In this document: positions 1 through 5,646 of the stretch, piece after piece | Layout of the letters: each line of letters opens with the position of its first letter | Position numbering within the stretch: the stretch's first letter is position 1 | Position numbers and translations under genes: made by a program | The notes under the pieces: model-generated | What the model saw: only the letters and a program-made list of their open reading frames with translations | What the model was told of the DNA's origin: nothing | The model's database searches: none | Origin: a virus | Lineage: Duplodnaviria > Heunggongvirae > Uroviricota > Caudoviricetes | Length of the DNA: 5,646 nt | IMG/VR virus record: IMGVR_UViG_2667527717_000010 | Location: 1 to 5,646 of that record | Reading direction: 5' to 3' (one strand)

Positions 1-2
1 CA

Positions 3-161
3 ACGTACGCCAAAACCGCCAGGTGCGTGGAAACGGGTGATTTTGCCCGGGCTTGGCAGGAAGGTGTTCGGATCTTCGGCGTTGATACGGCATTCCACCG
101 CATGGCCGCGAACGTGAACTTGAAGAGCGTGAGGCACTGGAAGCCAGGCAACAGGCCATGA
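3..161 (+). CDS. 3' end of an upstream ORF entering from the left edge (frame 3, open from position 3 to TGA 159-161); product unknown, possibly an upstream part of the exonuclease gene
   Basis: Frame 3 is open from the window edge and translates to a protein-like sequence (...[41 protein letters not shown]). Frames 1 and 2 both contain stops in this interval. No start is visible, so it is partial. Assignment is weak. Confidence 0.3.
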
Positions 162-217
162 TGGAAGGGCAGCAGGAGGGCGGACATGTCTCTCACTAAA
201 TTACTGCCGCTGCTGCC

Positions 218-502
218 ATGTATTGCGAGACCGCAGCGCTTGACCAGTTCTTCTGGATTTTCGTCAACAAAGACGAGAACTACCACTGGATCGCCATCAT
301 CGAGGCATCCGCCGAACTTCTGGAACTGGGCATGCTGGAGTACCGCAAGGCAATGCGCGCCATCGCTACCGGCTTTGACACTGGCGAGTGGCCAGCGCCG
401 ATCACCTCCGGTAACTCCGATGAAATAGCCGACTACACCGACGAACTGAACGATTTCGACACACGCCGCCTTGAAGCGCTGCGTACGGCACAAGGGGAAT
501 GA
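218..502 (+). CDS. C-terminal region of a lambda-Exo/YqaJ-type 5'-3' exonuclease; the N-terminal catalytic portion is absent from this frame, so this is probably a disrupted gene or remnant
   Basis: The translation contains WIFVNKD...HWIAIIE...GFDTGEW, which I match from memory to the lambda Exo C-terminus (WYFANYD...HYVVIE...GFVFGEQW). It sits immediately upstream of, and is coupled to, an annealing-protein gene, as in exo/SSAP pairs. Frame 2 is blocked by TAA 197-199 just upstream, there is no Shine-Dalgarno before ATG 218, and no frame is open across 1-217. Confidence 0.45.
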   Translation: MYCETAALDQFFWIFVNKDENYHWIAIIEASAELLELGMLEYRKAMRAIATGFDTGEWPAPITSGNSDEIADYTDELNDFDTRRLEALRTAQGE

Positions 503-1554
503 TGATGGAAAAAAACAACGTAGCAGTAATTGAACATAACGAACCGAGCACGATGAATAACACATCCCTGCTTCTGAATATCGACGTCATGGATCGCATG
601 ATGAAGCTAGCAGAGGTGATGTCTCAGGGCGTCGCGACAGTACCGAAACATCTACAGGGAAGACCTTCTGATTGTCTGGCAATAATCATGCAGGCCGCTC
701 GTTGGGGTATGGACCCATTTGTTGTAGGACAGAAAACACACCTGGTTAACGGGGCTCTGGGTTATGAAGCACAGCTTTACAACGCTTTAATCACCAGCTC
801 CAAAGTTGTACACGGGCGCTTTAAATACGAGTACGGCGGTGAGTGGGAAAAAATTGTTGGCAAAAAAGACGGGCGTGATGAATCAGGTTTGTTTGTTCGT
901 GTCGGAGCAGTTCTTCGAGGCGAGACAGAGGTGACCTGGGGAGAGCCAATTTACCTTGCTGATATTACTACGCGAAATTCCCCTTTGTGGAAAACCGCAC
1001 CTAAACAGCAAATAGGTTATTTGGCCGTTAAGTATTGGGCGAGGACTTACTGCCCTGAAGTCACAATGGGTGTTTATGACAGAGAAGATCTGGAACAACG
1101 AACAGAGCGCGAAATTAACCCTGCACCAATCCAACGAATGAGCGCTGCTGAAATCGCAGGTGACACCGTCACAACCACACAAAACACGCAGGAATCGTCA
1201 GTAAATATCGACTCACTGGCTGATGTTTTCCGCGAACGCATCAATGCTACGCAGGATGTAGACAGCGCCAAAGTAGTCCGGGCTGATATCGAAAGCGCGA
1301 AGGTCACACTCGGTTCGGCTCTGTTCACCGAACTGAAAAACAAGGCAGTGAAGCGCTATTACCTGGTAGATCACCGCAACAAAGTTGAAGCCGCGATCAA
1401 CTCCCTGCCGTCTCCGGACGAACCGAATGCAGCAGAACGGTTCGGAGAAGTTGAGCGAGCTCTTGCTGCGGCCAAACGTCACCTGGGTGACGAGCTGCAC
1501 GATCAGTTCAGCATCACCCTGGCAGATATGAAACCGGAATACATCACTGCATAA
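499..1554 (+). CDS. RecT/Bet (Red-beta)-family single-strand annealing recombinase, 351 aa
   Basis: Long ORF with the start overlapping the upstream stop (ATGATGATGG; the real start may be ATG 502 or 505, given the GGGGA at 494-498). Segment CLAIIMQAARWGMDPF..THLVNGALGYEAQL and later SPLWKTAPKQQIGYLAVKYWARTYCPEV resemble, from memory, conserved blocks of E. coli RecT and lambda Bet. Acidic C-terminal extension. Position matches a phage recombination module. Confidence 0.6.
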   Translation: MMMEKNNVAVIEHNEPSTMNNTSLLLNIDVMDRMMKLAEVMSQGVATVPKHLQGRPSDCLAIIMQAARWGMDPFVVGQKTHLVNGALGYEAQLYNALITSSKVVHGRFKYEYGGEWEKIVGKKDGRDESGLFVRVGAVLRGETEVTWGEPIYLADITTRNSPLWKTAPKQQIGYLAVKYWARTYCPEVTMGVYDREDLEQRTEREINPAPIQRMSAAEIAGDTVTTTQNTQESSVNIDSLADVFRERINATQDVDSAKVVRADIESAKVTLGSALFTELKNKAVKRYYLVDHRNKVEAAINSLPSPDEPNAAERFGEVERALAAAKRHLGDELHDQFSITLADMKPEYITA

Positions 1555-1569
1555 CGGAGGTGGTTGAAT

Positions 1570-1908
1570 ATGCCCAGATCAAACCCACCACAAAAGCAGG
1601 AGGCACTCATTCAGATAATCATCGAGGAAGTGAACCTGCGTGGTCGCCTGACCGTTAACCAGGCATCAGAGATGTTGTCGCTGCACCGTGGGACAACAGA
1701 AAAGTACTTTCGGGAAGCGACAATACGCGGTGGCCTTATTCGTCATGGACGCTGCGGCCTGTTCCGCGACCAGCGGGCTGTGCTTGATTTTGACTTACAG
1801 CGATTTTCGTACAACTCAGGAAAGTCCCTGGTGGATTTGCCGCCGGATTTTCGGGGAAGCGCGGTAATGCGCCGGGTTATTGAAATCGTGGGGAGGATGC
1901 CAGTATGA
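1570..1908 (+). CDS. Hypothetical small protein, about 112 aa, possibly with a helix-turn-helix-like segment
   Basis: ORF in the operon chain; GGAGG at 1556-1560 sits 9 nt before ATG 1570 (the ORF track begins at an in-frame TTG at 1564). Segment LTVNQASEMLSLHRGTTEKYF looks helix-turn-helix-like; no family recognised. Confidence 0.5.
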   Translation: MPRSNPPQKQEALIQIIIEEVNLRGRLTVNQASEMLSLHRGTTEKYFREATIRGGLIRHGRCGLFRDQRAVLDFDLQRFSYNSGKSLVDLPPDFRGSAVMRRVIEIVGRMPV

Positions 1909-2288
1909 CAATCGATAAACAGGCGCTGCGCCAATTAGCAACTGATGCGCACGAGCTTGGCATCATCAAGCGTTACACGAAAGGCATCGAGGCCAATAAG
2001 CGATTCATCGCCGCATTCAACCCGGCTACGGTGCTGGCGCTGCTGGATGAGCTGGAGAAAGATAACTGCTCAAACGTTCATTATGCTGACGCCGCCGAGA
2101 TGGAAATTGCAGCATTACGCCAGCGCATAGCAGAACTGCAAATTGCTCGAGACAAATGTTTCCTGAGCGGCCTGAAAACCGGCTGGGAATATGGCATTGC
2201 TGATGATACGGAAGGGTATAACCGTGAAATCGCTGATGCACAGGCAGTAATCGACCGCGCCGCTGGCATTGGCGTGAAGGGGGAATGA
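1905..2288 (+). CDS. Ead/Ea22-like prophage early-region protein, 127 aa
   Basis: ATG 1905 overlaps the upstream stop (ATGA). N-terminus MTIDKQALRQLA... and the NPATVLALLDELEK block match my recollection of the Ead/Ea22-like family common in enterobacterial lambdoid prophages. Confidence 0.5.
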   Translation: MTIDKQALRQLATDAHELGIIKRYTKGIEANKRFIAAFNPATVLALLDELEKDNCSNVHYADAAEMEIAALRQRIAELQIARDKCFLSGLKTGWEYGIADDTEGYNREIADAQAVIDRAAGIGVKGE

Positions 2289-2289
2289 G

Positions 2290-2472
2290 ATGGAACTAGT
2301 CATGTGGATATTCAAGTGCATAGGCGTAACTATTTGCCTGTTATCAGGGATACTGGTTACCGCTCTACTGGTGGGATTCGTAGCTCAATATTCCTGGGAA
2401 AAAATAAGGGTAGCTCATTCCGTTGTTGAAATTCAACGCGCCGTAAAGGCCTACAAAAACAAGAAGGACTAA
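2290..2472 (+). CDS. Small predicted membrane peptide, 60 aa, single N-terminal transmembrane helix and basic C-terminal tail
   Basis: ATG 2290 lies 1 nt after the upstream stop, preceded by AAGGGGGA. Hydrophobic stretch WIFKCIGVTICLLSGILVTALLVGFVA followed by a charged tail (KAYKNKKD). Confidence 0.45.
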   Translation: MELVMWIFKCIGVTICLLSGILVTALLVGFVAQYSWEKIRVAHSVVEIQRAVKAYKNKKD

Positions 2473-2589
2473 CCCATGACCACTATTACCAAAAAACAGC
2501 GTGCAGAGTTGCGCATGAAGTTCGGCGGTCGTTGTGCTTAGATTGGTAGCGCATGTCTGGCAGCACCGACACAAACAGAAGGATAACCG

Positions 2590-2847
2590 ATGTTCTGCCT
2601 GATTCAGCGTGGACAAATTTATACAGATTTTGACGGCTATCCTGTGACGATTTACCGCTGTGACGCCGACAGGATTGTGTATCGCCGTAATGACAGCCAA
2701 ATCCGTTCGGTTTCCACTGGTGAATTTAATGCGAAATTCGAGCGTATTGAATATCAGGAATATGCGCAGATAAAAGCCGAAATGGCCCGGGAGGAAAATA
2801 TCCGAAATTTACGCAATCAGGCCAGAGAAAATAAAGCAGCAGGATAA
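2590..2847 (+). CDS. Hypothetical protein, 85 aa
   Basis: ORF in the same orientation with AAGGA a few nt before ATG 2590; protein-like composition with a charged, helical-looking C-terminal half. No family recognised. Confidence 0.4.
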   Translation: MFCLIQRGQIYTDFDGYPVTIYRCDADRIVYRRNDSQIRSVSTGEFNAKFERIEYQEYAQIKAEMAREENIRNLRNQARENKAAG

Positions 2848-2939
2848 ACGCTGATATTGCCAGACAGTAAATAGAGGTAGAACGCTTAAAAACACCGCTC
2901 ACGCGGCGGGATTCGTGCAGCCTGAAAACGGAGGACATT

Positions 2940-3164
2940 GTGGACGCATTATTACGATACGCAACAAACAGAATTATCGAACTGGAGACCATGCTGTTAC
3001 CCGCAATACCGGAAATCATCCTTCGGGATTACCGTGGCAAGAAGTACACCAAGGACAAGCAAATTACTAGCTGTGGTAATGCGGTACCACCGCAGTTAGC
3101 TGAGGCGCTGGTGAGAGCTAACCTGCCTGAAATGTGTGTACAGCGTGAGGATCAGGCTGCATGA
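2940..3164 (+). CDS. 74-aa ORF carrying a cytosine-C5 DNA methyltransferase motif-X-like signature (SCGNAVPPQLAEALV); likely a C-terminal remnant of a prophage orphan methyltransferase, or a small methyltransferase-tail-like protein
   Basis: GTG start 5 nt after a strong GGAGG (2930-2934); the stop overlaps the next gene's ATG (ATGA at 3161-3164). GNAVPP followed by LA.A is the classic motif X of C5-methyltransferases (established knowledge). The in-frame upstream region is open only back to TAA 2868-2870, so there is no room for motifs I-VIII. Confidence 0.45.
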   Translation: MDALLRYATNRIIELETMLLPAIPEIILRDYRGKKYTKDKQITSCGNAVPPQLAEALVRANLPEMCVQREDQAA

Positions 3165-3514
3165 AAAAACATATCTGCATGTTTTGTGGTGAACCGGCCA
3201 CGCTGCTCTGCGATGGGAATCTCGGCTTTCCTCCAAAAGATGACCGTGGCAGAGAATGCATTGACGCATTCCACCAATATACCTGCGATGCGCCCATGTG
3301 CAGAAAATGTGGCACGCAGATGATGCGCATGTTCGTATCCGGGCGGAAACCTTATGCGGGGATCCACACAGTAGATCACTGCCCTATTTGTCTGCGTGAT
3401 CTGCCAACCTATCCAGCCCATGTGCGAAGGACATCTACTCGCAGGAGCAGGCAGAAGTTATCCGCGCTTCGCATTGGGCTGGTTACCAGAATGACCATAC
3501 GAAACGGCTGGTAA
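3161..3514 (+). CDS. Cys-rich putative zinc-ribbon protein, 117 aa, with a basic C-terminal tail; possibly a Lar/restriction-alleviation-like or other anti-defence protein
   Basis: Translationally coupled ORF. Three CxxC pairs (C6/C9, C47/C50, C74/C77) plus further Cys and His residues, and an Arg-rich C-terminal tail. It sits in the xis-proximal accessory position where Rac-type prophages carry ydaC/ralR-like genes. The functional label is inference. Confidence 0.5.
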   Translation: MKKHICMFCGEPATLLCDGNLGFPPKDDRGRECIDAFHQYTCDAPMCRKCGTQMMRMFVSGRKPYAGIHTVDHCPICLRDLPTYPAHVRRTSTRRSRQKLSALRIGLVTRMTIRNGW

Positions 3515-3578
3515 CTGAAAAAGGAGCTGAGCTGCAATCCTTTGATTTCTGGACCTGATCATCGTTGTTCAACCCCGG

Positions 3579-3609
3579 CCATCAGCTATTACGTATAGTG
3601 CGCTGATGG
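3579..3609. promoter_or_regulatory. Perfect 8-bp inverted repeat CCATCAGC-N15-GCTGATGG with a nested TACGTA palindrome in the only sizeable intergenic gap upstream of xis-int; candidate operator or regulatory hairpin
   Basis: Read directly: 3579-3586 CCATCAGC and 3602-3609 GCTGATGG are reverse complements; TACGTA at 3590-3595. A possible -35/-10 pair (TTGTTC 3565-3570, 16-bp spacer, TATTAC 3587-3592) overlaps the left arm. A second inverted repeat (GGTCAT 3608-3613, ATGACC 3628-3633) brackets the xis ribosome-binding site. Confidence 0.3.
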
Positions 3610-3634
3610 TCATAAAGTAAAAGAGACATGACCA

Positions 3635-3853
3635 ATGATTCAGCAAATCGTTTTTAATGAAGAATGGATGGTAGAAAAAAAACTACAGGATCGGACTGGT
3701 TTAAATGACCGCCAGATTGAGAAATACAGGCAAAATTGCTGGATTGAAGGGGTTCATTTTAAAAGAGTATCTCCCTTAGGAAACCTCAGAAGTTCTCGCG
3801 GAACGACCTGGTACAACTACCCCATGATTAACAAGTTTATTCAGGATTCCTAG
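3635..3853 (+). CDS. xis: Excisionase (Xis/AlpA-like winged-helix directionality factor), 72 aa
   Basis: Small basic ORF ending 2 nt before the int start codon. EEW...R.G...RQI.K.R...WIEG.HF pattern resembles lambda-type Xis (from memory); xis-int adjacency is canonical. Confidence 0.65.
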
Positions 3854-3855
3854 CG

Positions 3856-5103
3856 ATGGCTGCTTTACCAACAGGTGTAGAAATCAGAGGTAGTAGCATC
3901 TGTATCTGGTTTATGTACAGAGGAAAACGTTGCCGCGAAACTCTCAGAGGATGGAGCATAACACCTGCTAATATCAGAAAAGCAGGTAATCTGCGCTCAA
4001 TTATCGTCAGTGAAATCAACATGGGCGAGTTCGACTACCAGACTCGCTTCCCATCCTCCAAAAAAGCAATAAAAATTGTCACTACGGTTTCAGTCAGAAC
4101 TCTAGGCGAACTCTGTGATCTGTGGCTGTCGATAAAAGAGACTGAACTGGCGGCTAACACCTTGCGCAAAACCAGCTCGCAGCTCGACACGCTGAAATTC
4201 ATTATCAATAAAAACACGCCACTTTCGACGATTCGCCACAGCGACATTCTGAACTACCGCAACGAGCTGCTAAACGGAGAGACAAATTACCGAAACGCCA
4301 CGAGAGGAAATAAAACCGGCCGTACCGCGCGCACGGTTGATAATTACATTTCCCTGCTCTGCTCCCTGCTCCGTTTTGCGCAGCACTCAGGGTTTATTAA
4401 GCACAAACCTTTTGAGGGGGTTCGGAAGCTGCAAAAAGCCCGGATCAAACCGGACCCGCTCACAAAGCAGGAGTTTGCACAGTTGATGGAAGCAGAATAC
4501 GGCCAGAGCCAGAATCTGTGGAAATTTGCAGTATATACGGGCCTTCGTCATGGTGAACTTGCTGCGCTGGCGTGGGAGGATGTGGATCTCGAGGCGGGAA
4601 CAGTCAGCGTGTGCCGTAATCTGACCATTATCGGTACCTTCGGGCCGCCAAAGACAGATGCAGGCTACCGGACAATAAAGCTGCTGGAACCTGCGTTGGA
4701 AGCGTTGAAAGCACAGCGTGAACTTACCGCCCTCCAGCCAAAGTCAAAAATCGTTTTTAACCACCGTGAATATGGAAGGACAGAAACCCAGCGCGTGCAC
4801 TTTGTTTTCATGCCAAGGATGCGTAAAGGCGAGCAAAAACCGTATTACAGCGTATCGAGCATCGGGCACCGTTGGAACGCTGCCGTAAAACGTGCTGGCA
4901 TTCGTCGTCGGAATCCATATCACACACGGCATACTTTCGCCTGCTGGTTGTTATCCGCCGGTGCAAACCCGTCGTTTATCGCAAGTCAGATGGGACATGA
5001 AAATGCACAAATGGTTTATGAAGTATATGCAACATGGATGGATGATATGAACAAAGATCAAATTGAACTAATTAATAGAAACTTACTAAACTCTTTATTT
5101 TAA
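3856..5103 (+). CDS. int: Lambda-family tyrosine integrase (site-specific recombinase), 415 aa
   Basis: N-terminal arm-binding-type block LPTGVEIRG...WFMYRGKRCRETL; catalytic-domain signatures RHGELAALAWEDVDL, HTRHTFACWLLSAGANP and the terminal Tyr region MVYEVYATW (R...H-x-x-R...Y of tyrosine recombinases). Overall resemblance to Rac-type IntR is from recollection. Confidence 0.9.
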   Translation: MAALPTGVEIRGSSICIWFMYRGKRCRETLRGWSITPANIRKAGNLRSIIVSEINMGEFDYQTRFPSSKKAIKIVTTVSVRTLGELCDLWLSIKETELAANTLRKTSSQLDTLKFIINKNTPLSTIRHSDILNYRNELLNGETNYRNATRGNKTGRTARTVDNYISLLCSLLRFAQHSGFIKHKPFEGVRKLQKARIKPDPLTKQEFAQLMEAEYGQSQNLWKFAVYTGLRHGELAALAWEDVDLEAGTVSVCRNLTIIGTFGPPKTDAGYRTIKLLEPALEALKAQRELTALQPKSKIVFNHREYGRTETQRVHFVFMPRMRKGEQKPYYSVSSIGHRWNAAVKRAGIRRRNPYHTRHTFACWLLSAGANPSFIASQMGHENAQMVYEVYATWMDDMNKDQIELINRNLLNSLF

Positions 5104-5646
5104 GAAAGATGATATAAACATCGTACAATTCAAAATCAGATTACTGAATGATAATGCCGACACTAAACCGAATATTTTATATAACGTGTTACATTGAGAA
5201 TCCAATGCATTCTCTTTTTTATTAAGCTCCGTCAACTCTAACTTTTTCAACTCATCACGCATTGTCCTAAAAAGAACACTATACTCTGACTGACATTCTT
5301 GCACCAATACTTTTTGATAATTTGTAAGATAATATATGGTGAACGTCGTATATAAAGAAAGAACTATAGCTGCCATATTTAAAACCCACGAGTTTACATT
5401 ATCAAATTTCCCCATGGCAGCAAAACTGATTATTCCAGATATAGGAATGGCAAGTGACCTTGTAAGGGTGTCATACATTATGGAATTGAGTTTAGATAAA
5501 TAATCCCTGAATTTCTCTTGGTACTCCTTTCTTATTTTTTCAAAACTAAACCCGACCGTAAACGAAAGGTAATTTTCTTGGAAAATCCGTGAGAACAATG
5601 TAAAGTCGGTTAAAATTTTTGAAAGTCGATCTTCTTTCTTTACTCT
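5095..5646 (-). CDS. AT-rich gene for a predicted membrane protein (two central transmembrane helices, a coiled-coil-like segment and a hydrophobic C-terminus), convergent with int; the 5' end probably lies beyond the window
   Basis: Minus-strand frame open from the window edge (5646) to the stop at 5095-5097. The ORF track starts at TTG 5596-5598, which has no Shine-Dalgarno; the first ATG is codon 41 (5476-5478). Hydrophobic segments LAIPISGIISFAAM, WVLNMAAIVLSLYTTFTIYYL and IFGLVSALSFSNLILNCTMFISSF. The stop lies 9 bp inside the int coding end. G+C is visibly much lower than in the prophage genes. Confidence 0.5.
   Translation of the reverse strand, partial: RVKKEDRLSKILTDFTLFSRIFQENYLSFTVGFSFEKIRKEYQEKFRDYLSKLNSIMYDTLTRSLAIPISGIISFAAMGKFDNVNSWVLNMAAIVLSLYTTFTIYYLTNYQKVLVQECQSEYSVLFRTMRDELKKLELTELNKKENALDSQCNTLYKIFGLVSALSFSNLILNCTMFISSFLK

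Follow-up and report, generated by a model that had tools for sequence, protein, structure and literature searches.

The closest described counterpart of the locus presented here is the Rac prophage of E. coli K-12, which carries the recE-recT pair that encodes exonuclease VIII and RecT (proteins of 866 aa and 269 aa, respectively, in K-12). The lambda Exo and YqaJ exonucleases also act together with a single-strand annealing protein, and they belong, as RecE does, to the PD-(D/E)XK superfamily.

The stretch of DNA that was analyzed, referred to here as the window, has 5,646 bases and corresponds to the entire contig CCBS01000305.1 of the assembly GCA_000938175.1, the two sequences being identical. 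This assembly is a fragmented draft of at least 305 contigs, and a literature search on the accession numbers returned no publication. As the contig is coextensive with the window, position 1 is a contig end. Positions 211-5646 are the early-left arm of a Rac-like E. coli prophage that lies beside ttcA, and the genes of this arm are the 3' end of recE, recT, a DUF977 gene, an Ead/Ea22-like gene, xis, and int.

The arm shares the gene order recE, recT, xis, int with the Rac prophage, as well as the orientation of int, which in the intact loci faces ttcA-dbpA-zntB, i.e., the Rac attachment region. The ATGA overlap of recE and recT is also shared, together with the architecture of the intact RecE homologue, which combines an Exonuc_VIII N-terminus with a PD-(D/E)XK C-terminal domain. 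On the other hand, the identity to the DNA of the E. coli recE and recT reaches only about 81-89%, in short stretches, and the proteins of the relatives differ in length from those of K-12, with 1034-1038 aa in RecE and 351 aa in RecT. In addition, two extra genes (one of 402 aa and one NA37-like, of 341 aa) are found between int and ttcA, and of recE, the window itself retains no more than the final 96 codons.

The recT gene is intact (positions 499-1554, plus strand, 351 aa), and its product matches the Pfam RecT family PF03837 over residues 39-204 (E = 5e-31), while its start codon (499-501) overlaps the TGA (500-502) of the ORF found at 218-502. The exact RecT protein occurs in 65 gene-index blocks, and 24 of the 24 contigs that were read share the neighbourhood of the three shown, with a 1034-1038-aa RecE directly upstream and the same downstream genes through int, which is in agreement with the integrase look-up. 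Among the species-representative genomes, the closest relatives of this RecT are found in Citrobacter (93%, C. pasteurii). The last 140 residues or so of the protein form an extra C-terminal region, beyond the Pfam domain, which is common to the Citrobacter and Enterobacter relatives, and the matches in Pantoea, Erwinia, and Proteus end near residue 209.

Other parts of the arm also deserve a brief description. A 74-aa ORF at 2940-3164 (plus strand) ends in ...SCGNAVPPQLAEALV, which we take to be motif X of the C5 cytosine DNA methyltransferases, and this ORF looks like the C-terminal remnant of a dcm-like gene, with the Pfam search being empty at E <= 0.1. As the intact relatives also carry this 74-aa gene, it was inherited and is not an artefact of the contig.

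At the other end of the window, the AT-rich 402-aa gene shares 9 bases with the end of int, and the window holds just its 3' part (5095-5646, minus strand). In the related locus L054 (11240-13479), this gene is followed by the 341-aa NA37/YejK-like paralogue, both of them lying between int and the chromosomal ttcA. The 402-aa gene returned no Pfam or PADLOC family above the threshold, and the pair was unmatched in 5426 complete E. coli genomes. The two genes may be cargo of the prophage end. The prophage arm (211-5646) is itself absent from these 5426 complete genomes, in which the best place is 20% covered, at 81% identity, and the index of draft and run-level data lists its integrase in 162 blocks. 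The arm thus seems to be common in draft data and unrepresented in finished genomes.

Immediately upstream of recT, the 3' remnant of recE occupies positions 211-502 (plus strand), with 100% DNA identity to the intact locus L003 from position 211 on. This remnant runs from the third base of codon 938 to the stop codon, and comprises residues 939-1034 of the 1034-aa RecE. When the intact RecE was used as a tblastn query, window positions 209-499 aligned with its residues 938-1034 at 99% identity, which bears out the proposal of the initial annotation that 218-502 encodes what remains of the C-terminus of the exonuclease paired with the annealing protein.

The same annotation had assigned this partner to the lambda-Exo/YqaJ type, a classification that has to be replaced. 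The profile search of the intact homologue found PF06630 (Exonuc_VIII) at residues 54-194 and PF12684 (PD-(D/E)XK) at residues 835-1001, with no match to a YqaJ or lambda Exo Pfam profile in either the remnant or the intact RecE, and the records of E. coli and phage label the matching DNA as RecE or exodeoxyribonuclease VIII. On sequence grounds, then, the family of the remnant is RecE, and not lambda Exo/YqaJ.

The PD-(D/E)XK motifs of the intact RecE are RVRPD (891-895) and ADLKT (907-911), which include the residues D895, D908, and K910, and align in register with RCRPD and DVKT of 3H4R, the structure of the E. coli RecE nuclease domain. This match, which was obtained with the C-terminal 300 aa as the query, is weak (E = 0.13) and was used solely for the placement of the motifs, and the whole intact RecE returned nothing from the PDB at E <= 0.001. 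The catalytic D895 and D908-x-K910 are upstream of the break at codon 938, and are missing from the window, as are the N-terminal PF06630 and the full PF12684 domain.

The ORF at 218-502 encodes 94 aa, in which no Pfam family was found at E <= 0.01, and its ATG at 218 is the internal Met941 of RecE. As had been recorded in the initial annotation, no Shine-Dalgarno sequence precedes this codon (positions 198-217 were inspected, AAATTACTGCCGCTGCTGCC). Given that the motifs lie upstream of codon 938, the 94-aa product, if translated at all, would be predicted to lack nuclease activity.

The point at which recE is interrupted was located by the comparison with seven independent E. coli loci, to which bases 211-5646 are 99.9-100% identical, with no mismatches in L003, one in each of L002 and L054, four in L001, L053, and L055, and five in L056. 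A RecE of 1034-1038 aa is found directly upstream of recT in six of these loci, and the seventh (L056) has a 569-aa form. In an ungapped comparison, the 30-base bins score 30/30 up to the 210|211 boundary, and precisely there the identity falls to about 25%. When bases 1-230 were compared with the seven loci by blastn-short, only 211-230 were matched, with the homology beginning at 211 in all seven. The tblastn search with the intact RecE was equally clear, recovering window 209-499 only, with no recE similarity in any frame of 1-208. A single sharp breakpoint with no trace of recE upstream is unlike the outcome of frameshift or nonsense decay.

The initial annotation had nevertheless interpreted 1-217 as recE degraded in place, by frameshift or nonsense decay. 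Within the window, only the absence of a frame open across 1-217 speaks for this, and decay of this kind does occur in the family, given that the relative L032 (Leclercia NCTC13032) has an apparent frameshift, a change of frame inside recE, at about 5301-5309. However, similarity to recE is absent from 1-208 at both the protein and the DNA level, and accC and traQ/trbB account for bases 1-209 at 100% identity. The homology to a parent gene that a pseudogene would retain upstream of its disruptions is missing, which refutes decay in place and leaves this explanation with practically no probability.

The first of the foreign segments, at 1-121 (minus strand), is an internal fragment of the E. 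coli accC gene (biotin carboxylase), with 100% identity to gene bases 980-1100, i.e., about codons 327-367 of 449. This piece is antisense to recT and extends to the end of the contig, and its minus-frame translation fits accC, with the annotation and the register in agreement. It was matched in 5426 of 5426 E. coli genomes, and is 100% identical in strains such as CFSAN018748, 042, Ecol_316, and THO-008. The accC gene is essential, and the head of the contig holds merely an internal antisense slice of it.

The second segment comes from the transfer region of the F plasmid. In the BLAST search, window positions 118-209 were 98.9% identical to the F-type plasmids, and as the sole mismatch is at 121, the match from 122 to 209 is exact. 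This segment includes the 3' end of traQ (122-199, plus strand, frame 2), together with the ribosome-binding site and the first eight codons of trbB (174-209, plus strand), that is, AGGAGGG at 174-180 and the ATG at 186, which opens the peptide MSLTKLLP. Given that the annotated end of traQ at 482 of the plasmid locus L006 corresponds to window position 199, the TAA at 197-199 is the traQ stop codon, and given that the annotated start of the trbB CDS at 469 corresponds to window position 186, the AGGAGGG and the ATG are the ribosome-binding site and start codon of trbB itself.

Between the plasmid segment and recE there is a single orphan base, the C at 210, where the plasmid has A and recE has G in the three-way alignment. 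The alignment also indicates that the joins, at 121|122 and at 209/210/211, are blunt, with no useful microhomology.

Most of the signals that the initial annotation had described in this region were found in the sequence. No frame is open across 1-217, the stop codons are present at 159-161 in frame 3 and at 38-40, 83-85, and 197-199 in frame 2, and both the AGGAGGG at 174-180 and the ATG at 186 are there. In frame 1, the stop codons listed at 121-123 and 130-132 are genuine, although the triplets given at 112-114 and 118-120 are not stop codons, and the actual one is at 115-117. What has to be abandoned is the interpretation of the stop codons and of the ribosome-binding site with its out-of-frame ATG as a signature of decay, given that the plasmid annotation identifies them as native signals of traQ and trbB, i.e., of other genes pasted into the contig. 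The same annotation had proposed that its view would fall if 3-161 were the end of an unrelated gene and 218-502 were unrelated to exonucleases; the former region does consist of pieces of unrelated genes, and the latter is related to an exonuclease.

One further feature of the plasmid segment is its start (window 122-130), which reads exactly GAAGAGCGT, a 9-mer of the core of the Illumina TruSeq adapter, at the place where the native plasmid carries GGAAGAGCGT. Around 11 sites for adapter 9-mers occur by chance over the 5.6-kb window, so this feature was given no weight as a clue, and it may be a coincidence.

The window is thus a mosaic in which the foreign part (bases 1-210) lies at the terminus of the contig, and its segments, each identical to an unlinked locus, are joined abruptly. 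Bases 1-210 are, in all likelihood, a chimeric contig end, that is, an artefact of the assembly or of the library that is foreign to the prophage and involves no gene decay. The initial annotation had listed an assembly error as one of its alternatives, and this is the part of it that best matches the evidence, whereas the cryptic prophage or orphan annealing protein that it derived from decay finds no support in 210 foreign bases at the end of a contig. We infer that the joins were made in the library or during the assembly, without the involvement of the cell.

The head of the contig is composed of two short scraps, both of a type of DNA that such a cell would also contain, namely at least 121 bases of the chromosomal accC (antisense) and 88 bases of the traQ/trbB boundary of the F plasmid, which were joined bluntly, with the addition of one stray base. 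The source of these scraps was most likely a chimeric template or read, or else a faulty step of end-extension or gap-closing, and the assembler would have attached the foreign head at the point where the true path through recE stopped. The 94-aa ORF would then be a by-product, with an internal methionine as its start, no ribosome-binding site, and no nuclease active site. One difficulty of the chimeric contig end is that two blunt joins within 90 bases require either a doubly chimeric template or two separate artefacts.

Given this, the recET genes of the isolate are most likely an ordinary, intact pair in a Rac-like prophage at ttcA, and the biology that underlies the window would be that of an ordinary recET module. 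The case also calls for caution, given that what looks like a pseudogene, or like an "orphan annealing protein", near the end of a small contig in a draft assembly can be the product of a chimeric contig end.

The head may also be considered as the contaminating DNA of another organism, or as cross-talk within a multiplexed library, which is a very improbable origin here. In its favour, the nearest RecT among the species-representative genomes comes from Citrobacter, whereas the head is composed of E. coli and F-plasmid DNA. Against it, the near-identical prophages sit in E. coli chromosomes, in which the ttcA-dbpA-zntB flank is 99.9% identical to that of the E. coli strains Ecol_316 and THO-008, which have the exact accC allele. 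As these two strains are the best match for both the accC allele and the prophage flank, the three pieces can share a single preparation of E. coli DNA, and contamination from another species is unnecessary, since the copies of the prophage are found in the same E. coli lineage as the accC allele.

A genuine rearrangement would have a different meaning. A break in recE may have been repaired in the cell by homology-independent end joining, with the capture of F-plasmid and chromosomal DNA as filler, in which case recT would have lost its exonuclease partner. Both joins are contained in the deposited sequence, and all three pieces are compatible with one E. coli lineage. A copy of accC that duplicates the true locus would also be expected to halt a graph assembler at this point, which may account for the end of the contig.

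The gene-position look-up lists "samples_with_this_contig = 3" for CCBS01000305.1, and the protein index has the junction ORF on one contig (NCBI) only. The former entry might signal a reproducible contig, and the joins would be real if this contig had been obtained from three independent libraries.

However, the junction was found nowhere else in the collections that were searched. The junction string had 0 exact matches in viral_contigs and in genome_contigs (species-representative genomes), the 94-aa junction ORF forms a singleton cluster, for which the gene index lists a single contig, and in the 5426 complete E. coli genomes the share of bases 1-560 matched at any one place never exceeds 54%. 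A search with the cut 183-aa product at the right end of the contig found CCBS01000305.1 only, with no sister contig that has another left end.

The joins lie where artefacts are typically found, at the very end of a short contig, and E. coli very rarely captures two fragments of around 100 bases from separate replicons as a patchwork, which also counts against a real rearrangement. On balance, such an end-joining event is unlikely, and the more specific scenario, in which a double-strand break in the recE of the prophage was healed with an 88-base scrap of a resident F plasmid and a scrap of accC, leaving recT as an orphan, is rather doubtful. If the joins were real, they would represent a natural case of patchwork capture of filler DNA in an enterobacterial genome during the repair of a break, which would be of moderate interest.

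The known relatives provide valuable points of comparison for these explanations. In Citrobacter pasteurii CIP 55.13, two contigs (L007 and L008) also break inside the 3' end of recE, just upstream of recT, as the window does. Both contigs start 113 bases upstream of different recT paralogues (positions 1-113 in each case), and as their first 95 bases or so are more than 90% alike, these starts look like a contig break at a repeat boundary at the 3' end of recE. Unlike the window, both have a clean start in recE sequence, with no foreign head. That another draft breaks at this spot is in favour of a chimeric contig end.

Natural truncations of recE beside an intact recT are also found in the family, which favours a real rearrangement and counts against a chimeric contig end. 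For example, 77 residues (954-1030) remain at 5729-5995 of L026, from the complete genome of C. murliniae (CP163158.1), beside a DnaC-like gene, and 32 residues (1000-1031) remain at 5915-5989 of L010, from Citrobacter sp. Cu233. In the E. coli locus L056, the 569-aa RecE (1665-3374) keeps residues 483-1034 and lies behind com/mom. Given these examples, there is nothing implausible in an orphan recT as such.

The likeness to the two Citrobacter loci lies in the short C-terminal RecE remnant directly upstream of an intact recT, and the differences are found on the other side of the break. In L026 and L010, the remnant abuts genes of the prophage, such as the DnaC-like loader on the opposite strand, within long contigs or a complete genome, and in L056 it is likewise joined to phage genes inside a long contig. 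The truncations of the relatives thus join recE to phage genes (DnaC-like, mom) and not to scraps of housekeeping or plasmid DNA, whereas in the window the DNA next to the remnant consists of 88 bases of F tra sequence and then a piece of antisense accC, with which the contig ends.
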